Source of the DNA: a virus
Lineage: Duplodnaviria > Caudoviricetes
Virus record (IMG/VR): IMGVR_UViG_3300044931_000080
Span: 1 to 48,595 of that record
Reading direction: 5' to 3' (one strand)
Length of the DNA: 48,595 bases
Made by a program: the position numbers and the translations under genes. This document shows positions 25,161 through 47,039 of the stretch, piece after piece; the first letter of the stretch is position 1, and every line of letters starts with the position of its first letter. The notes under the pieces were generated by a model, which was not told the DNA's origin, ran no database searches, and saw only the letters and a list, made by a program, of their open reading frames with translations.

Positions 25161-26206
25161 TGGCCATCACCGCCATCACGATCCGGCTGCAGTCTGAACT
25201 GCGGCGCCTCACAGACGGGTACGTGGACGCTGTGACTCGTGCCCTGGTCGCCCGCTGGTCGCAGGCGTGGCACGAGATCAGCGCGGAGTGGGAGCTGGTA
25301 GTGGGTGAGATCGTCGCCGCCCGCTCGACAGGGGAGGTGCTGCATCCCGCGCAGATCGCCCAACTGGCCCGCACACAGCGCGCTCTCACCGTGACGGCGG
25401 ACAAGCTCACCGAACTGGTGGGGGAGTTCGAGAACGTCCTAGGTGAGCCGCTGCAGGAGATCGTGCGCCGCACAGCGGACATGACCTCTCAGGTCGTCGC
25501 CTCCCAACTCCCGGATCTGCCGGTCTTCCAGTCGTTCACGCGGGTGGATGCGGCGGCGATGCAGGCCATCATCGACCGCACCATGAGCCGGATCGTCGCG
25601 GACAGCATGCCGCTCGCCCCTGATGCTCTGGATGCGGTGAAGGCATCCCTGATTCGTGCTGTGCCTGCCGGCTGGCATCCGGACAAGGCCGCCAGGGAGA
25701 TGCTCAAGCGCACCCGATCCTCGTTCAACGGGGGACTGGCCCGCGCCACGAGGATCGCACGCACAGAGCTCCTCGACGCGCACAGGGCTGCGAATCACGA
25801 CCAGATGCGAGCCAACGACACCGTCACCTCCTGGATCTGGTGGACGCAGTTGGATGCGACGACGTGCCCGTCCTGCATCGCCCAACACGGCACCATCCAC
25901 CCCAAGGGCGAGCCGGGGCCCCTCGACCACCCGAATGGGCGATGCACCGCGCTGCCGAAGACACAGACATGGGCAGACCTCGGCTTCCCCGATCTCGACG
26001 AACCCGCCGACCTCATCACCACGGCTGAGGACTGGATCCGCGACAACCCGCAGGACGCACTCCAGGCGTTGGGGGCGGACCGGTATCAGCTGCTCATGGA
26101 CGGTCGCATCACCATCTCTGACCTGTCCACCCTGACCAGTAACGACGGGTGGCGGGACTCCTACCAAGCCACCCCACTCGCAACGCTCCGGAAGGAGACC
26201 ACATGA
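25160..26206 (+). CDS. MuF-like minor head protein
   Basis: RIARTE, TCPSC..HG, DHPNGRC motifs. Confidence 0.9.
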   Translation: MAITAITIRLQSELRRLTDGYVDAVTRALVARWSQAWHEISAEWELVVGEIVAARSTGEVLHPAQIAQLARTQRALTVTADKLTELVGEFENVLGEPLQEIVRRTADMTSQVVASQLPDLPVFQSFTRVDAAAMQAIIDRTMSRIVADSMPLAPDALDAVKASLIRAVPAGWHPDKAAREMLKRTRSSFNGGLARATRIARTELLDAHRAANHDQMRANDTVTSWIWWTQLDATTCPSCIAQHGTIHPKGEPGPLDHPNGRCTALPKTQTWADLGFPDLDEPADLITTAEDWIRDNPQDALQALGADRYQLLMDGRITISDLSTLTSNDGWRDSYQATPLATLRKETT

Positions 26207-27372
26207 CCCTCCTCCGCGAAACCGCAACCCTCACACAGGCAGGCGGACGCTTCCGCATCGGCGTCATCACCCCCGGCGTCGGCTCCTCCGGCACCTACCC
26301 GCGGGAGACGATCGAAGCCGCCGAACGCGACCGCATCTTCCCCGCCGGCACCCACATGTACCTCGACCACGCCACCGAAGCACAGACGTGGGAGAAGCCG
26401 GAAGGGTCCCTCCGCGACCTCGTCGGTGTCCTCACGGAGGACGCACGGTGGGACGACGAATCGGGCGGCCTCGTCGCAGAAGCGAAGATCTACTCCCACT
26501 GGAAGCCGATCCTCGCTGAGATGAAGGACGACATCGGGGTCAGCATCCGAGCCTCCGGGGAAGTGAAGGAGACCAGCGAAGGCCGCATCGTCACCCGCCT
26601 CACCGAAGCCCGCAGCGTGGACTTCGTGACGAAGGCCGGACGCGGTGGGCGGATCCTCGAGGTCCTCGAGTCGCTGCGTGAGGGTGTCAACGATGAGACC
26701 CGCGACCTGCTGCGCAAGGCCGTCCGCGCTGCCCACCCGAATGGGTACGTGTGGGTGCGCGACCACGACGGTGAGCACGTGTGGTTCGACATCGACAGTG
26801 ACGACGGCGAGACCACCTACCAGCAGGCCTACACCCGCAACGGCATCACCATCACCCTCGACGGTGAACCCTCCCCAGTGGTGCCGACGACCGTGTACGT
26901 CCCCGCCCGTGGCACTGAGACCTCCCAGCCCCCGGCTGGACAGGAAGCACCAGTCAACGAATCCCAGGAAGGAACCCTCATGGGACACATCCAGATCGAG
27001 GAGTCCGCGCACGCGGCACTCACCGAGAAGGCCAGCCGGGCAGACACGCTCGAAACGCAGCTGGCCGAAGCCAACACCAAGATCGAGACGCTCGAGGCGG
27101 AGAAGACGAAGGCGGCACGCGCCACCCACGTCTCCAAGCTCATCGAGGCGGAGTTCGACGGCATCGACGACCCGGCAGGAGTCGCCGCTCTCCTCACCGA
27201 GAAGCACACGGCGGCGGACACGGACGACGACACCATCATCGCTGAGGCGAAGGACCGCGCCGCCAAGCTCACCCCCACCGGCGGCGTCACCAACCTCGGT
27301 GAGACCCGCCCCGTCGAAGAGGCCAAGAAGGTCACCGACGACGACATCATCGCTGCTCTGGAAGGAGCCTGA
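26203..27372 (+). CDS. Prohead protease/scaffold protein
   Basis: YLDH, GVSI, SVDFVT..GRGG motifs; coiled-coil scaffold C-terminus. Confidence 0.85.
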   Translation: MTLLRETATLTQAGGRFRIGVITPGVGSSGTYPRETIEAAERDRIFPAGTHMYLDHATEAQTWEKPEGSLRDLVGVLTEDARWDDESGGLVAEAKIYSHWKPILAEMKDDIGVSIRASGEVKETSEGRIVTRLTEARSVDFVTKAGRGGRILEVLESLREGVNDETRDLLRKAVRAAHPNGYVWVRDHDGEHVWFDIDSDDGETTYQQAYTRNGITITLDGEPSPVVPTTVYVPARGTETSQPPAGQEAPVNESQEGTLMGHIQIEESAHAALTEKASRADTLETQLAEANTKIETLEAEKTKAARATHVSKLIEAEFDGIDDPAGVAALLTEKHTAADTDDDTIIAEAKDRAAKLTPTGGVTNLGETRPVEEAKKVTDDDIIAALEGA

Positions 27373-27374
27373 CC

Positions 27375-27722
27375 ATGGCGAAGAACCAGCTCTACCCCGA
27401 GGCGAAGCACATCGCCCTCACCGCCGACCAGGACTACACCAGCGGCAGCCCTGTCGCGATCGGCGCAGTCCGAGGTGTCGCCCTCATCGACGCCCACGAG
27501 GGCGACCGCGTGACCGTGTGGACGGACGGATCCTGGGAGATCCCCGTCGCCGGCGCACTCACGGAGGGGCAGGTCGTCTACCTCAACGCCTCCGGCGCGC
27601 TGACCGCGACCGCGGGTGACACCGCGTGGGGCGTCTCCCTCGCCGTCAAGGGCACCGGCACCGCCCCTGCAGAGGTCGCACCGTTCGGCTTCGTCACCCC
27701 GACCCCGGCGTCTGCCGGCTGA
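27375..27722 (+). CDS. Capsid cement/decoration protein (DUF2190-like)
   Basis: MAKN...SG.PV..G...GVAL.D motif. Confidence 0.85.
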   Translation: MAKNQLYPEAKHIALTADQDYTSGSPVAIGAVRGVALIDAHEGDRVTVWTDGSWEIPVAGALTEGQVVYLNASGALTATAGDTAWGVSLAVKGTGTAPAEVAPFGFVTPTPASAG

Positions 27723-27739
27723 CCGAAAGGCACAAGAAC

Positions 27740-28807
27740 ATGGACACCATTGATCTGATGCAGGAGGGATTCCGGCGCGCTACGACGCGTGCGGAGAAGG
27801 TCCACGAGGCCGCCTCCCTGTTCGCCCGCGGCCGCAACGGCAGCAAGCCCCTCGCCCAGGCCGTCCTCCTCGAGGCGTTCTCCACGAGCGACTTCCCGGT
27901 CCTCCTGGGTGACGCGTTCGAGAAGCAGGCCCTCAAGGCCTACCAGGACACGCCGCTCGAGTTCGAGAGCATCCTCACCGACACGACGGTGGATGACTTC
28001 GAGCGCCGCAAGCTCGTCGACCTGTGGGGAGCCACCGAGTTCGCGCCTGTCGGTGAGGGCGAGGAGTACAAGTCCGGTCGCATGCAGGAGACCGAGATCG
28101 AGCACGGCACCGGCAAGTACGGTCGCACGTACGGTCTCACCTGGGAGCTGCGTCTGCGTCGCCGCTTCGCTGAGCTGGCGAACTTCCCCCGCGCTCTCGG
28201 CAACGGTGCCCGCAAGACCCAGAACACGGTCGTCGCGGACCTCCTCACCGACGGCAACAGCTGGAACGCGAACTTCTTCGGCACCCCCGGCACCGAGAAG
28301 TTCACCCCCGAGGCGCTGGACGCGGCGATCAAGACGCTCGCCCAGCGCACCAACCACCGGGACGAGCTCGTCGACACGTCGAACCTCGTCCTCGTGCACG
28401 GCCCCGCACTGCGTGGCGAGGTGGGGCGTGTCCTCACTGCAGCCCGCATCGTCACGAAGGTGACCACGGGTTCGAAGGTGACGGAGACGGAGGTCGACAA
28501 CCCGTACCGCGGCATCGTCACCCCGCTGGAGTCCCGCACGATCGGTGCGCGTGTCAACGCGGACGGGTGGGCGCTCGTGCAGGGCAAGACGTCGGATCTG
28601 CCGTCGATCATCCGCACGAAGCTCAACGGTCACCCCGACGTCGACATCCGGGTCAAGCGCGACCAGGGTTCCGCTGTCGGTGGTGGGGACATTCCGGTGG
28701 AGGAGGGGTCGTTCAACGACGACACCATCCACTACCGGGGTCGTTCTGTGGTCGGTATCGATGCGGGGTTCAAGACGGGCGTGTACGCCTCCAACGGCAC
28801 CGCCTGA
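27740..28807 (+). CDS. Major capsid protein (Mu gpT-like)
   Basis: STSDFP.LL, V.DF, V.E.EEY, KYGR...TWE motifs; strong codon bias. Confidence 0.9.
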   Translation: MDTIDLMQEGFRRATTRAEKVHEAASLFARGRNGSKPLAQAVLLEAFSTSDFPVLLGDAFEKQALKAYQDTPLEFESILTDTTVDDFERRKLVDLWGATEFAPVGEGEEYKSGRMQETEIEHGTGKYGRTYGLTWELRLRRRFAELANFPRALGNGARKTQNTVVADLLTDGNSWNANFFGTPGTEKFTPEALDAAIKTLAQRTNHRDELVDTSNLVLVHGPALRGEVGRVLTAARIVTKVTTGSKVTETEVDNPYRGIVTPLESRTIGARVNADGWALVQGKTSDLPSIIRTKLNGHPDVDIRVKRDQGSAVGGGDIPVEEGSFNDDTIHYRGRSVVGIDAGFKTGVYASNGTA

Positions 28808-28829
28808 GACCTGAGGGGAGGGGGCGCAG

Positions 28830-28898
28830 ATGATCGACTACAGCACTGAGGTTGGCCAGATGCGCCTCCTCCTGTGTCCGTGCTCGACGGTAGAATAG
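28830..28898 (+). pseudogene. Orphaned original 5' end of head-tail adaptor gene
   Basis: GGAGGGGG RBS + MIDYSTEVGQMRLL aligns ungapped to INYTDDSGRVRLL of the gene at 29589. Confidence 0.75.
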
Positions 28899-28981
28899 GA
28901 CACGCAACCGAATAGAACGGCCCGCCAGGAGACGGCAATCTCCGGACGGGCCTCACCAAGCCCAACTGTTCAGGAGTTGAG
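28873..28981 (+). promoter_or_regulatory. PafBC-like promoter and structured leader of HNH-1
   Basis: TGTCCG-N10-TAGAAT; hairpin with CGGCAA loop; CAACT/AGTTG hairpin over RBS. Confidence 0.65.
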
Positions 28982-29596
28982 ATGGCTACCAAGAATCGTA
29001 CCTGCACAATCGACGGCTGCGACAAAGAAGCGGAGCGCCGAGAGTGGTGCAACACCCACTGCTTGCGGTGGAGGCGCAACGGAGATCCGGTTGCAGGACG
29101 GCGACCCCAGGCAAGCGCGTCACTGGACCCGATCGACCGACTCCGCCACCACGGATGGGATGTCACCGAAACAGGGTGCTGGGAGTGGCGAGGATCAACC
29201 AGCTCCAGCGGGTACGGGCAAGTTCGGATCGGTTACAAGCTCTACGCTGCGCACCGCGTCATGTATGAACACGCAGTCGGGCCTATTGAAGACGGTATGC
29301 ACATCCTCCACTCGTGTGACAACCCGCCATGTCTCAACCCGGCGCACCTGCGTAGTGGAACGCACACAGACAACATGCGTGACATGTCCTCCAAAGGGCG
29401 CCGCCGACCGGACAGCGTTCTTCCTCGCGGGTCTCAGCACGCGAACGCGATCCTCACCGAAGAACTCGTGATTGATCTGCGCACTGAACGTCGGGGAGGG
29501 ATGACGTACAAGCAGCTTGCTGCGAAGTACGGGGTTGCATTCTCTACGGTCGCGGACATCGTCAAACGGAAGAAGTGGAGGCACGTCGGTGGCTAA
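28982..29596 (+). CDS. HNH homing endonuclease 1 (C-terminal HTH)
   Basis: CWEW, AHRV.Y, HSCDNPPCLNPAHL..GT..DN. Confidence 0.93.
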   Translation: MATKNRTCTIDGCDKEAERREWCNTHCLRWRRNGDPVAGRRPQASASLDPIDRLRHHGWDVTETGCWEWRGSTSSSGYGQVRIGYKLYAAHRVMYEHAVGPIEDGMHILHSCDNPPCLNPAHLRSGTHTDNMRDMSSKGRRRPDSVLPRGSQHANAILTEELVIDLRTERRGGMTYKQLAAKYGVAFSTVADIVKRKKWRHVGG

Positions 29597-29960
29597 AGCG
29601 ATCAACTACACCGATGACTCTGGCCGGGTCAGACTTCTCATTGCCGACACGGATGTCGACAACCTAGTCCTGGACGATGAGCAGATCCTCGGGTTCCTCG
29701 AGATCCATGGGGGCAACGTCAAGCGTGCTGCTGCGGCGGCACTCGACACGATCGCCTCGTCTGAGGCGCTGCTGTCGAAGAAGATCCGCACGCAGGACCG
29801 TCAGACCGATGGGCCTGCGGTGGCGGATGCTCTGCGTGCTCATGCTCGTGCTTTGCGGGATGAGGCGGACGGTGAGGATCAGGTGGAGGAGGAGTCGTTC
29901 TTCCTCCTGACCGAGCCGCTCCTGCCGACGCGAGTCGAGGGGGAGGAATGGCGCCGCTGA
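29589..29960 (+). CDS. Head-tail adaptor/connector
   Basis: VRLLIADTD...DEQI..FL...AAA.ALD.IA; first structural gene after capsid. Confidence 0.8.
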   Translation: MAKAINYTDDSGRVRLLIADTDVDNLVLDDEQILGFLEIHGGNVKRAAAAALDTIASSEALLSKKIRTQDRQTDGPAVADALRAHARALRDEADGEDQVEEESFFLLTEPLLPTRVEGEEWRR

Positions 29961-30370
29961 GCACCACCCGCATCATGCCGGACAACTGGTCGGAGCATCA
30001 CAGGCCAGCGGCGGAGGGGTTCCTCACAGGCACTTGCGATGCGCGGCGGGCGGATCGGGCTGGTGGCCCTGAGGGGATCATCTACGGCACCCCAGTGTGG
30101 GACGAGAAGCCGTGCAGTGCGCAGTTCCTGTCCCAGTCCGCGAGGCCTGTCGTGGTCGTGGACAGCACTGAGGTGCAGGTGACCCACCGCGTCTCGGTAC
30201 CGATCCATCTCACGGATCTGGGGTACCGCGACGTCATCACCATCACCGCGAACCCGGACGACCCCCGCCTGAACGGAGCTGTCCTGACAGTGGTGACGGT
30301 GGAGTCGGGGACGACGAACTGGACCAGAGACCTCGCCTGCGTCGAACAGAACCGGAGGCGACATGAGTGA
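29948..30370 (+). CDS. Head closure/stopper (DUF6093-like)
   Basis: Synteny and beta-rich 140 aa. Confidence 0.7.
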   Translation: MAPLSTTRIMPDNWSEHHRPAAEGFLTGTCDARRADRAGGPEGIIYGTPVWDEKPCSAQFLSQSARPVVVVDSTEVQVTHRVSVPIHLTDLGYRDVITITANPDDPRLNGAVLTVVTVESGTTNWTRDLACVEQNRRRHE

Positions 30371-30710
30371 TGACCTGAGGGCGTTCGCAACAGACCTCCG
30401 CAAGACCAGCGCGAAGGCCCAGAACATGGCCCGCCAGGCCGTGGCGAAGACCGCTGCCGACATCACCAGCGATGCGAAGGTGTACGCACCCGTCCGCACC
30501 GGCAACCTACGGGCGAGCATCGGCCACGACCTCACCGAGACGAATGGCGTGGTGGAGGCTGAGATCGGACCCACGGTGAGTTACGCGCACTTCCTCGAGC
30601 ACGGGACGAGTCGGATGGCGCCCCGCCCGTTCCTCGGGCCCGCGTTCGACCGGCGCGCACCCAACCTCGAGAAAGCCATGAGCATGCTCCTTGACGGGAC
30701 CGTCGGATGA
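30363..30710 (+). CDS. HK97 gp10-like neck protein
   Basis: APVRTGNLRASI, YA.FLE.GTSRM..RPFL.PA. Confidence 0.92.
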   Translation: MSDDLRAFATDLRKTSAKAQNMARQAVAKTAADITSDAKVYAPVRTGNLRASIGHDLTETNGVVEAEIGPTVSYAHFLEHGTSRMAPRPFLGPAFDRRAPNLEKAMSMLLDGTVG

Positions 30711-31111
30711 CGACCGAAGAACTGGTCGCCCACCTCATCAACCGGCTCGGTCTCACGGGGGCGCTCGTCTACGACGGGCACGTCCCCGACCAGATACCCA
30801 CGTTCCCCGGCACCGCGATCATCCGCCCGTACATGGTCATCTGGGCGATGCCCACCAGGGAAGGCGAGGAGCAGGACCTGGCGTACTCGCACCAGAACTC
30901 CCGCTCCGACCTCACCATCACCGTCGCCGCCGGCTCCGTCGAGACCGTCCGTCATCACTCTCAGCAGGCGATTGGGCTCCTGCACCGGCAGACCCTCCCC
31001 GGTGGTGGGGAGCTGCGGCACACAGACCCCCACGTGGCTGTTCAGTGGGACGAGACCGTCACCCCAGGACGCTTCTACCAGCCACTCGCCTTCATGCTCC
31101 TGCAGCCGTAA
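30707..31111 (+). CDS. Tail terminator protein
   Basis: VYDG.VP...PY.V motif and synteny. Confidence 0.75.
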   Translation: MTTEELVAHLINRLGLTGALVYDGHVPDQIPTFPGTAIIRPYMVIWAMPTREGEEQDLAYSHQNSRSDLTITVAAGSVETVRHHSQQAIGLLHRQTLPGGGELRHTDPHVAVQWDETVTPGRFYQPLAFMLLQP

Positions 31112-31129
31112 ACCCTCCTGCCCCGCTCT

Positions 31130-31163
31130 GGCCCTCACGAACGTCGTGGGGGCCTTCGTCATT
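31130..31163 (+). terminator. Hairpin/attenuator-like element
   Basis: GGCCCTCACGA-ACG-TCGTGGGGGCC then TTCGTCATT. Confidence 0.5.
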
Positions 31164-31178
31164 CACGAAGGGAAACCC

Positions 31179-31370
31179 ATGCCCGACAAGTTCATCGAGG
31201 CCATCGACACACGGACGGGACAGAAGATGCGCGTCCCCTCCCAGTGGCCCAGCCTCTTCCCCCACATCAAGGCACGCAAGCACCACCGACCGGACCAGCC
31301 CAAGACCGTCCAGGTCACCGAGCCGCGTCCCCAGATCCCCACCCTCAAGAACGAACCGAAGGAGTCCTGA
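31179..31370 (+). CDS. Small hypothetical protein
   Basis: GAAGGG RBS; precedes major tail gene. Confidence 0.6.
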   Translation: MPDKFIEAIDTRTGQKMRVPSQWPSLFPHIKARKHHRPDQPKTVQVTEPRPQIPTLKNEPKES

Positions 31371-31371
31371 A

Positions 31372-31914
31372 ATGCCTCTCTCACTCGCTGATGGAAAGGT
31401 CAAGGTCGCAGTCCTGTCGACTCGACCCGCCAACCCCTCCGCTCCCACCGTCGCGGAGCTGGACGCTGGAATCCAGGCCTCGTGCCGAATCGCCAGCCAG
31501 GACTGGAACGTGGGCCCTGCGGCCTCCGAGACAGTCGATGAGAAGCCGCTGTGCCGCGAAGGAAACGTGCAGGCGCTCGGCCCAAGCAACTTCACGGCGG
31601 AGTTCACCGTGTTCCGGTACTTCACCGAGGAGGGGCAGCCCGAAACCGGTGAGGACGACACCGAGGAAGGCATTGGAGATGCCCTCTACCAGGCGGTGAA
31701 GACCAAGGGTGCGCGTCTGTACATCTACGAGCGCGAGACCTCCCGGAAGTCCCTGGCGGATTGGGCTGCTGATGACGAGGTGAGCGGGTACGAGATCCTG
31801 CTCGACAACCCTCAGAAGCCGGGAGACCAGGGCGGCTACATCAAGCGTCGCGTGGTCGGGCTCGTGCAGGATGCGTGGCTCGACGCCAAGGTCGCAGCCG
31901 GCACCGGCGGCTGA
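31372..31914 (+). CDS. Major tail (tube) protein
   Basis: APTVAEL.AG motif, LC, synteny. Confidence 0.88.
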   Translation: MPLSLADGKVKVAVLSTRPANPSAPTVAELDAGIQASCRIASQDWNVGPAASETVDEKPLCREGNVQALGPSNFTAEFTVFRYFTEEGQPETGEDDTEEGIGDALYQAVKTKGARLYIYERETSRKSLADWAADDEVSGYEILLDNPQKPGDQGGYIKRRVVGLVQDAWLDAKVAAGTGG

Positions 31915-31925
31915 CCCTGACAACT

Positions 31926-31971
31926 CCTGTGCGGCATGCTCTTCCATGCCACGGGCGGCATGCCGCACAGG
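31926..31971 (+). terminator. 14-bp stem hairpin after major tail gene
   Basis: CCTGTGCGGCATGC-N18-GCATGCCGCACAGG. Confidence 0.55.
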
Positions 31972-31980
31972 TCCACATCT

Positions 31981-32075
31981 TGTGTCCGTGGCGTTCGATA
32001 TGATGGTCGGACAATCGAAGAGCCCCCGCGCTGCGCTAACAGCCGGGGGTGTGGCCGAGTATGGAGGTACTCGAC
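31981..32075 (+). promoter_or_regulatory. PafBC-like promoter and structured leader of HNH-2
   Basis: TGTCCG-N10-TATGAT; hairpin with CGCTAA loop; CGAGTA-TGGAGG-TACTCG RBS hairpin. Confidence 0.65.
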
Positions 32076-32633
32076 ATGTCCAAGCGTACCTGTTCAATCG
32101 ACGAGTGCGAGTCGGCTGTGCGCTCCCGCGGCGCATGCGTCCGGCATTACGCGCTGATGCTCTCCCCGGATGAGGCGGCAGAACTGCAAGCAAGCGTTCG
32201 CGACCGGTTCTGGGCGAAGGTCGATCAGTCCGGCGAATGCTGGACCTGGACCGCTGCGCGCTATCGGAACGGGTACGGCGCATTCCGGGGATTCGACGGT
32301 CGCGTCACAACCGCTCACCGGTTTTCCTATAGCACCGAAGTGGAGGACATCCCGGATGAGCAGCACATCGACCACCTCTGCGGCTCGCGCGATTGCGTTC
32401 GGCCCGCCCACCTGAGAGCAGTAACGCCGAAGCAGAACATCGAGCACCGCGTAACCCTAAACGCGAACAACCGGAGCGGATACCGGGGCGTGTACTTCTC
32501 CAACGGGCGGTGGTGGGTGAAGGTGCGTGACCACTACCAGGCCCACTACCGGGGCGGCTTCATGACCTTGGAAGAGGCCAACGAAGCGGCCATTTCGCTC
32601 CGCCAGGAACTGTTCACACACTCGCGAGACTGA
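32076..32633 (+). CDS. HNH homing endonuclease 2 (C-terminal AP2 domain)
   Basis: RFWAKV, CW.W, AHRFSY, DHLC...CVRP.HL; NRSGYRGV...W...F.T.EEA AP2. Confidence 0.93.
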   Translation: MSKRTCSIDECESAVRSRGACVRHYALMLSPDEAAELQASVRDRFWAKVDQSGECWTWTAARYRNGYGAFRGFDGRVTTAHRFSYSTEVEDIPDEQHIDHLCGSRDCVRPAHLRAVTPKQNIEHRVTLNANNRSGYRGVYFSNGRWWVKVRDHYQAHYRGGFMTLEEANEAAISLRQELFTHSRD

Positions 32634-32700
32634 TCAATCAATAGCAATGGGAAGCCCTCACAGCCGTGGGGGCTTCCGCCATTCAAGAAGGAGAAAGCCC

Positions 32701-33351
32701 GTGGCCGAAGACGATATGTTCAGCAGCTCTCCTGTCGACCCAGCCGATGGGGACTGGTTTTCGCAGTGGCTCGAGACCGGCACCGTCGCCCAGCGCAGCG
32801 TCCCCATCTACGGGCGCCCGGATCTGTTCGCGAAGTACGAAGACCTCGAGCGCCGACGGCAGATCGCCGCGGAAGTCGACCAGGAAGAGCGCAGCCTGGG
32901 GGACTCGTCCCTGGCGGACATCGACGAGGAGATCAACGCCCTCTACAAGCAATGGCAGGCGTCCAAGACCGTCTGGTACATCCGCGCCCTGCAGCCCGAC
33001 GAGATCGATCAGGCCCGGGATGAGGTGAACTTCCCGGACGAGCCGAAGCCGGCGGAGGGGGAGAAGGAACTCTCTGCTGAGGTGCGTCGAGAGTACGAGC
33101 GGGAGGCTGAGGCCGCGAACACGCGTGCGAACCAGATCTTCGTCGCCCGCTCCCTCGTGAAGATCGAGAACAGCCTGGGTGAGGTCGTCCGTGAGTCGAT
33201 CACCCCGGAGCAGGTGAAGGTGATGCGGGAGAAGCTGGGTGATCAGCAGATCCTCCGTCTGGTCGCGGCGGCGATGGTCGCGGCGACCCAGGAGGTTTCG
33301 ATCCCGGTCCCTTTCTCTCAGAGCAGCTCGAAGAGCGACCGCGCCTCGTAA
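32701..33351 (+). CDS. Tail assembly chaperone (gpG)
   Basis: Between tail tube and TMP; AAGGAG RBS; slippery site at 3' end. Confidence 0.85.
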   Translation: MAEDDMFSSSPVDPADGDWFSQWLETGTVAQRSVPIYGRPDLFAKYEDLERRRQIAAEVDQEERSLGDSSLADIDEEINALYKQWQASKTVWYIRALQPDEIDQARDEVNFPDEPKPAEGEKELSAEVRREYEREAEAANTRANQIFVARSLVKIENSLGEVVRESITPEQVKVMREKLGDQQILRLVAAAMVAATQEVSIPVPFSQSSSKSDRAS

Positions 33352-46255: not shown

Positions 46256-46268
46256 GAGACACCAAATT

Positions 46269-46373
46269 CGGGGCCGTGTTCGGATACAATAGAAGCACAA
46301 TCGAATACGGCCCCGCCACGGTGCGTCAACACCACGGCGGGGCCTGACCAAGCCCAACTGTTGAGGAGTTGAG
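46269..46373 (+). promoter_or_regulatory. Promoter and structured leader of HNH-3
   Basis: TACAAT at 46285; hairpin with CGTCAA loop; RBS hairpin nearly identical to HNH-1. Confidence 0.65.
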
Positions 46374-47039
46374 ATGGCTACCAAGAAGCCTACCTGTAGC
46401 GAACCCGAATGCACCAAGAGCGTTGGCGCTCGCGGCCTTTGCTGGACGCACTACAAGCGTCTCCGGCGAGAAGGGCGGCTGACCCCCATGCGCGTCAAGG
46501 GCCGCACCTGCACTGTAGATGGGTGCAATGAGCCGCATGAAGCGCTCGGGTACTGCAACAGGCACTACTTGACGTATAAGCGCACCGGCGACCCGCTCCC
46601 AAAGCACGAGTGGGACCTGGCTGACAGGTTCCTCGACGTCGGGTGGGACGTGACCGACTCGGGCTGCTGGGAGTGGCGCGGCACCCGCGCCGTGGCTGGC
46701 TACGGCAGAATTAGCGCTTCCATGTGGGGCCTGCGCGACCGCTCCACTCACCGACTCAGTTACGAACTCTTCCACGGACCCATCCCAGACGGGCTGCTAA
46801 TCCGCCACAAGTGCGACAACCCTCCCTGCGTGAACCCTGACCACCTGGAGCCGGGGACGCATCAGGACAACATGAACGACATGGTGGCTCGAGGGCGGCA
46901 CTGGCGGCACGGCGGAACTCACTGCAAGCACGGACATGACATGACCGCCCCAGGGGCGCTACTCGACAGCGGAGGACGCCGGAGATGCAGGCTGTGCGTT
47001 CAGAGGCAGAACCGATCCAGGTCTACAAGCAAGGAGTGA
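46374..47039 (+). CDS. HNH homing endonuclease 3 (C-terminal Zn finger)
   Basis: Two N-terminal C..C...C..HY repeats, HKCDNPPCVNPDHL, THCKHGH...CRLC. Confidence 0.93.
   Translation: MATKKPTCSEPECTKSVGARGLCWTHYKRLRREGRLTPMRVKGRTCTVDGCNEPHEALGYCNRHYLTYKRTGDPLPKHEWDLADRFLDVGWDVTDSGCWEWRGTRAVAGYGRISASMWGLRDRSTHRLSYELFHGPIPDGLLIRHKCDNPPCVNPDHLEPGTHQDNMNDMVARGRHWRHGGTHCKHGHDMTAPGALLDSGGRRRCRLCVQRQNRSRSTSKE

Follow-up and report, generated by a model that had tools for sequence, protein, structure and literature searches.

Genes and features at the locus

The window, as we call the whole stretch of 48,595 nucleotides that was analysed, is a 48.6-kb provirus record that is 96% complete and has a G+C content of 65%. 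Its genes follow the head-neck-tail order of siphophages, and the phage is present in sequencing runs labelled ant metagenome. All features described here lie on the plus strand. The upstream flank of the locus is formed by the major capsid protein gene (27740..28807; Pfam PF25209, E 3e-27), which has its stop at 28807, and the downstream flank by a DUF6093 gene (29948..30370), the protein of which is 88% identical to that of a relative without the HNH gene. Between the two flanks lie the orphan start of an adaptor gene, an HNH endonuclease gene with its leader, and a complete gene for a predicted head-tail adaptor.

Behind the capsid gene there is the G-rich Shine-Dalgarno sequence of the original adaptor start (28812..28824), which is kept in the HNH-free relative. 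Translation from the ATG at 28830 gives MIDYSTEVGQMRLLL at the start of an open reading frame of 22 codons. Its first 14 codons and two further nucleotides (28830..28873) make up the orphan 5′ stub, assigned to the resident, or class A, allele of the adaptor gene; the frame then runs on for seven codons into the cassette and ends at the TAG at 28896-28898.

The leader between the break and the HNH start is 108 nt long. At the left end of the cassette (28874..28903), the inverted arms GTGTCC and GGACAC enclose a −10-like TAGAAT (28891-28896), an arrangement predicted to be a promoter or an operator. A promoter at TGTGTCC had been proposed in the initial annotation. It is in keeping with this proposal that TAGAAT stands behind a CCGTG motif at two places in the window, before the nuclease gene of this locus (HNH-1) and before a second HNH gene (HNH-2), but a scan for canonical sigma-70 promoters and terminators found nothing, and we infer a cassette promoter from the motif itself. 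Further along (28919..28987), the leader is predicted to fold into a GC-rich hairpin and then into a hairpin over the HNH Shine-Dalgarno sequence (fold z −2.9); the second hairpin would hold part of the AGGAG at 28972-28976. Control by hairpins that cover the ribosome-binding site is known from T4 homing endonucleases, according to the accessible part of PMC2988022.

The HNH-1 leader recurs before two other, intergenic HNH genes in this genome: the leader of HNH-3 (46274-46396) shows 78% identity to it, and HNH-2 shares its upstream motif. HNH-2 (31915-32633) lies between the major tail gene and the tail chaperone gene, behind a hairpin, and its leader shows the same TGTGTCC..−10..GGACA arrangement; no stub was seen there by eye, and the relative has about 100 nt between those two genes. 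HNH-3 (46256-47039) begins with the same four codons as HNH-1 and belongs to a 31-member cluster in public data. All three genes share the architecture of −10-like box, hairpin and ribosome site. When a 15-nt pattern from the leader was searched, 104 loci were found, and every match with the leader's Shine-Dalgarno sequence following was the window phage.

HNH-1 (28982..29596) is an intact reading frame for a protein of 204 aa with a complete HNH nuclease domain, matching PF13392 (HNH_3) with 50.9 bits (cut-off 24.8) over model positions 1-46 of 46 and assigned to HNH endonuclease in PHROG. The protein has an N-terminal Cys/His motif, the full HNH_3 domain and a C-terminal HTH-like region, the HTH match being below cut-off. 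H110, N119 and N131 are present, His and Asn residues that we take to be catalytic. No match to HNH-1 was obtained by sequence among solved structures; 34 loci came out of a scan of viral contigs, and apart from copies none was more than 65% identical; a search of representative sequences returned generic HNH proteins only.

The last codons of HNH-1 contain GGAGG (29577..29581), the predicted Shine-Dalgarno sequence of the next gene, located 7 nt before a GTG at 29589; the initiation signal of that gene therefore lies inside the nuclease gene. The GTG overlaps the last 8 nt of the HNH reading frame and opens a frame of 123 codons (29589..29960), a complete gene for the predicted head-tail adaptor (123 aa) in what we term the class B allele. 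A hairpin over this new start was not significant (z 0.34).

The structural model of the adaptor protein has a mean pLDDT of 80.6, with values of 84-97 for residues 1-60. In a Foldseek search with this model, the top five rows were phage neck chains (E 0.08-1). The VIA comparison gave a best Z of 11.1 (rmsd 6.3, 93 residues aligned to 9gb5_I), and 12 of its 13 top rows were phage neck, tail or portal-adaptor chains. For a helical protein each of these fold scores is, by itself, moderate, but they fit the order of the genes, and the annotation of a homologue found at the same place reads putative adaptor Ad1. The gene is complete, and it seems likely that it encodes a head-tail adaptor, as was first proposed, of the siphophage Ad1 type. 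For the role of such adaptors we refer to SPP1 gp15 and HK97 gp6, which we take to be essential virion components. Homologues of the adaptor were found in Brevibacterium, Arthrobacter and Glutamicibacter phages, and nine of the homologues (P0077, P0092, P0093, P0098, P0102, P0104, P0106, P0108 and P0118), 201-216 aa in length, have an extra N-terminal domain of approximately 80-90 residues.

The codons at the start of the downstream gene had been called atypical, and measurement bore this out. Over codons 2-18 the CAI is 0.36, which is below all 4185 overlapping 17-codon segments of 10 structural genes and also below the N-termini of those genes (0.47-0.95); over codons 5-17 it is 0.46, where the intact allele has 0.66. 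By about codon 28 this dip has faded. Among the six residues common to the stub and the downstream copy, there are two synonymous changes (AGA and CTT), which adjoin the break. The low CAI could reflect a foreign origin or translational coupling, not escape from cleavage.

The break point and two classes of adaptor allele

It was asked in the initial annotation whether relatives carry an uninterrupted allele, and such alleles were found, both as DNA in the HNH-free relative and as full-length homologous proteins that carry the start of the stub. The HNH-free relative is one phage, seen in six copies that are identical over the region (L157-L162), in which 21 nt separate the capsid stop from an uninterrupted adaptor gene. 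No match to HNH_3 was found in its 88%-complete record and two fragments. When the stub was compared with the intact gene of one of these copies (L161), 43 of 46 nt were identical over 28828-28873 (E 2e-13; 41 of 44 nt in the stub itself), and only 2 of the next 22. This sudden divergence places the break at 28873/28874. The earlier position, about 28871, was slightly off, although the coincidence with the beginning of TGTGTCC (28873) stood. At the protein level, the stub equals the first 15 residues (15/15) of P0014, which is among the best 120 of 252 adaptor homologues, and of the cluster members P0253 and P0256. To judge from these matches, the stub is the native adaptor start, and the HNH gene evidently sits 15 codons into a likely head-tail adaptor gene.

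It is the match to intact homologues that makes the stub real. The ungapped identity of stub and downstream copy, 6 of 13 residues, was confirmed on recomputation for codons 2-14 (28 of 44 nt), but taken alone this likeness is not above chance, and an unguided screen of upstream and downstream sequences missed the pair. A generic stub screen at 31 HNH sites missed its own positive control and is thus uninformative on other loci. A 20-nt pattern from the stub found seven loci in viral contigs, five of them copies of the window phage and two of them unrelated genes, and in this search no intact allele with the exact DNA of the stub was found.

The cognate nuclease-free locus exists in a related genome that co-occurs with the window phage in the same DNA runs: both the window phage and the intact allele were present in all four of the runs examined (18 listed, at 80% likeness). 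In the intact allele of these runs, position 28873 is joined to 29714 with 72 other letters between. The terminase, portal, Mu-F, decoration and DUF6093 proteins of the window phage and the relative are 88-98% identical, and the adaptor proteins 68%. Across the adaptor gene, the identity to L161 varies from 57 to 90% per 30-nt bin, and at this degree of divergence the relative neither allows the right end of the cassette to be mapped nor qualifies as the direct precursor.

We also noticed two other features of the relative. When 26206-28807 of the window was compared with 309-2979 of L161, the portal, Mu-F and decoration proteins were 90-98% identical, the protease 54% and the capsid protein approximately 42%; the divergence of protease and capsid has the appearance of a head-module swap adjoining the HNH site, between two co-occurring phages. 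In addition, at 3001-3012 of L161 the class A allele has three extra N-terminal residues, and a TGA is found there at the offset that the HNH stop has in the class B start. This TGA may be left over from an overlap that existed earlier, or it is there by chance.

For the comparison of alleles, 27 close proteins were sorted by eye on their N-terminus into class A (11 proteins, stub-like) and class B (16 proteins, including that of the window), and eight more distant adaptor proteins were left ungrouped. Over residues 5-18, the stub is identical to class A proteins at 11-14 of 14 positions and to the remaining 15 of class B at 6-9, whereas the downstream copy matches class A at 6-7 and class B at 9-11. 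The two classes are fully separated by nine columns, all of them from position 3 to position 42 and none later. A split between the classes in a tree of the N-terminal half is circular, because the classes were assigned from the N-terminus. In a tree of residues 56-123, the labels mix, with four changes, at least two of which are forced by strong branches; 13 of the 16 class B rows stand together there, with weak support. The C-terminal half of the window's adaptor is 97% identical to a class B protein, P0243.

Since the class-diagnostic residues extend to position 42, the incoming piece has at least 42 codons, and it may be the whole adaptor gene. This modifies the proposal that the gene was repaired with a diverged N-terminus: a complete, different start has indeed been supplied, but it is not a tip of 13 codons, as the protein is of class B to at least codon 42 and its C-terminal half is 97% identical to P0243.

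The occurrence of class B starts in HNH-free homologues had been named as one observation that would count against a homing element, and the one close HNH-free phage with DNA begins like the stub. Neither a metagenome scan (80 of 98 kept) nor a genome scan (33 loci) found a class B locus. The 15 other class B alleles are known as proteins only, and class B may exist without a nuclease too. The cassette was seen in five more copies without any difference over 28801-29960, so that one independent cassette event is represented by DNA. Among 163 loci with capsid and adaptor hits (a redundant and mostly distant set, six of them the window phage), no other HNH gene was found between the two. A hint of a second case comes from P0192, the only protein found with an N-terminus like that of HNH-1 (24 of the first 26 aa), the C-terminal part of which differs. 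For both P0192 and the class B adaptor P0248, the one Logan contig on record has a length of 38,152 nt, and it is probably the same contig; this second case is suggested by the two proteins only. In two other phages, HNH genes are located one or two genes downstream of the adaptor gene (L205, 3688-4374; L214, 3728-4210).

Origin and expression of the interrupted gene

The arrangement of stub, nuclease gene and second start could be expressed in more than one way. One of them is a self-splicing intron by which the stub would be linked to the main part of the downstream gene; Cluster J mycobacteriophages have such introns in their capsid and tail genes. Introns in structural genes of actinophages are documented (PMC3706429, accessible part), and here the reading frame formally permits joins in which the exon ends in U and the intron in G, eight of which give proteins of 118-122 aa. 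On the other hand, an Rfam search over 28500-33000 found no intron family at E ≤ 1, and the free non-coding sequence amounts to only about 155 nt, made up of the 108-nt leader and some 47 nt behind the HNH stop. The leader itself is common to intergenic HNH genes, and the downstream gene has a complete N-terminus of its own, like the 15 full-length class B proteins. No joint was seen in any of the four RNA assemblies examined (six listed), which is weak evidence as these are shallow and may hold DNA; with the same reservation, RNA contigs extend across the left junction (X20 and X21) and across the overlap of HNH and adaptor genes (X20, X21 and X22). We consider splicing very unlikely, in agreement with the initial view that it is not needed. 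The sole Rfam match in the searched region, Plasmid_R1162, reached 36 bits where the gathering score is 55, and we discarded it as a mere resemblance of hairpins.

Another way would be to use the peptide of the stub, either by a ribosomal hop over the insertion or by complementation of the downstream polypeptide. The stub does keep a strong Shine-Dalgarno sequence and an open frame of 22 codons, and genes split after HNH insertion are known, such as T4 gene 60 and Aeh1 nrdA (PMC2988022, accessible part). However, the gap is longer than 700 nt and holds a full reading frame, the downstream protein already has residues equivalent to those of the stub, and the model of that protein shows good folding from its first residues on (pLDDT 84-97 for residues 1-60). 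Bypass or a split protein is in our opinion the most improbable of the accounts discussed here.

The reading that we hold to be probable is that the locus is a free-standing HNH homing cassette carrying a likely resistant adaptor allele, which replaces the resident allele without splicing. The nuclease would cut or nick the class A allele of a co-infecting phage near the break, and the cut allele would be repaired from the cassette-bearing genome. It should be mentioned that for HNH homing enzymes the cut may lie at some distance from the place of insertion (PMC12724721, accessible part). The class B allele would be resistant because its sequence round the break differs. The new allele would be translated from the GGAGG and GTG in the HNH tail, probably coupled to termination of HNH translation, and splicing would therefore not be needed.

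In such an exchange, the stub together with the Shine-Dalgarno sequence would form the left homology arm, about 90 nt of conserved sequence (28783-28873) that consists of pieces 84% and 93% identical to the relative. Upstream of it the capsid genes have diverged too far, which would make an arm at this place useful. On the right, the crossover would be expected within the 3′ half of the adaptor gene or past it, or in the next genes. Of the original idea of an intron-less element that inserts into its host gene and repairs it, the native stub, the complete downstream gene and the dispensability of splicing were upheld, whereas the repair by a short tip was not.

A different origin has to be weighed against homing by allele replacement. 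The locus may be a one-off mosaic, in which a donor with an intergenic HNH gene before a class B adaptor gene recombined with a class A phage through an illegitimate left crossover at codon 15; the stub would be debris, and the nuclease would target another gene or nothing. Several observations are consistent with such an event: the downstream gene has class B character from end to end, both further HNH genes of the genome look intergenic, the head module is patchy, with a capsid of 42% and a protease of 54% identity beside neighbours of 90-98%, and a single independent locus has been seen. It accounts less well for a crossover at exactly the first base of the promoter-like motif of the cassette, for a codon atypicality that is highest at the stub-equivalent codons, and for a stub that is intact at 41 of 44 nt. 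The mixing of class labels in the tree of the C-terminal half (four changes, at least two forced) also speaks against it, being what repeated 5′ replacement would be expected to produce. We regard the mosaic as a rather unlikely origin, one to be taken more seriously than splicing.

If homing by allele replacement did take place, it may have a wider meaning, which we put forward tentatively and with more doubt than belief: that actinophages host WHO-like homing elements on gene starts, in which exchangeable HNH nucleases ride with class B resistant alleles, embed a new ribosome-binding site in their own tail and keep a stub as a recombination arm. Were this true, the nuclease could not be deleted cleanly, the ribosome-binding site being in its tail, and an allele arms race would be driven in a virion neck protein. 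A replaced 5′ end would also explain intragenic mosaicism in a virion gene. Stubs of this kind are missed by gene callers, and the design may therefore be common. With cassette-bearing and cassette-free alleles in the same runs and a break known to the base, the locus is a compact test pair.

Comparison with known homing elements

The comparisons below hold for the accessible portions of the sources cited. Among free-standing endonucleases, the seg and mob genes of T4 are the phage examples of intronless homing (PMC2988022; PMC12724721). The cassette resembles them as a free-standing gene in an essential operon, with a resistance predicted from allele differences, co-conversion of the flanks and a leader hairpin over the ribosome-binding site. 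The T4-type genes differ in that they are intergenic or split their target into two working pieces (mobA/gene 60, Aeh1 mobE/nrdA), and in these portions an orphan 5′ stub beside a complete replacement allele is not described for them (PMC2988022; PMC12724721). In mycobacteriophage Omega, HNH gene 51 lies beside lysin A, where a loss of 35 bp creates a new 3′ end (PMC3706429). As in our case, an actinophage has acquired an HNH gene that altered the end of a neighbouring gene, but no duplicated and displaced gene end is described there in the accessible text (PMC3706429). The same portions of PMC10448857 and PMC8351571 describe no such phage design with a 5′ stub, and the open full-text literature that was searched yielded no published account of a nuclease in a phage that combines an orphan 5′ stub with a replacement start.

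The closest parallels come from eukaryotes. In fungal mitochondria, mORFs form gene hybrids, in Allomyces with atp6 and in Glomus with atp6, atp9, cox2 and nad3 (PMC3630166). Common to these and to the phage cassette is that an endonuclease element brings a foreign copy of a gene end, which displaces the native end. The mORF replacements, however, are C-terminal, involve LAGLIDADG or GIY-YIG enzymes, occur in organelles and need no new translation start.

WHO elements, which home into FBA1 of Torulaspora and Lachancea yeasts, carry a resistant allele that takes the place of the gene's 3′ end, and the leftover FBA1 fragment has been proposed to serve as a homology arm (PMC7282813; bioRxiv 10.64898/2026.08.13.744650). 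Next to introns and inteins, they have been ranked as a third and rare category of homing elements (bioRxiv 10.64898/2026.08.13.744650). As in WHO elements, the nuclease gene lies here between a full-length, allelic-variant host gene and a fragment of the old allele, and neither an intron nor an intein is involved. WHO elements differ in replacing the 3′ half, in their LAGLIDADG or intein-like zinc-finger nuclease, in residing in the yeast nucleus and in building clusters, whereas the phage cassette concerns the 5′ end, has an HNH nuclease, sits in a virion gene and places the new start inside the nuclease stop, cleavage being a prediction here. A phage HNH version at the 5′ end would extend the WHO category to viruses and to another nuclease family. 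The cassette belongs neither to the WHO family proper nor to the mORFs; its design is known in kind from both, and is here mirrored at the 5′ end of a gene, in a phage.
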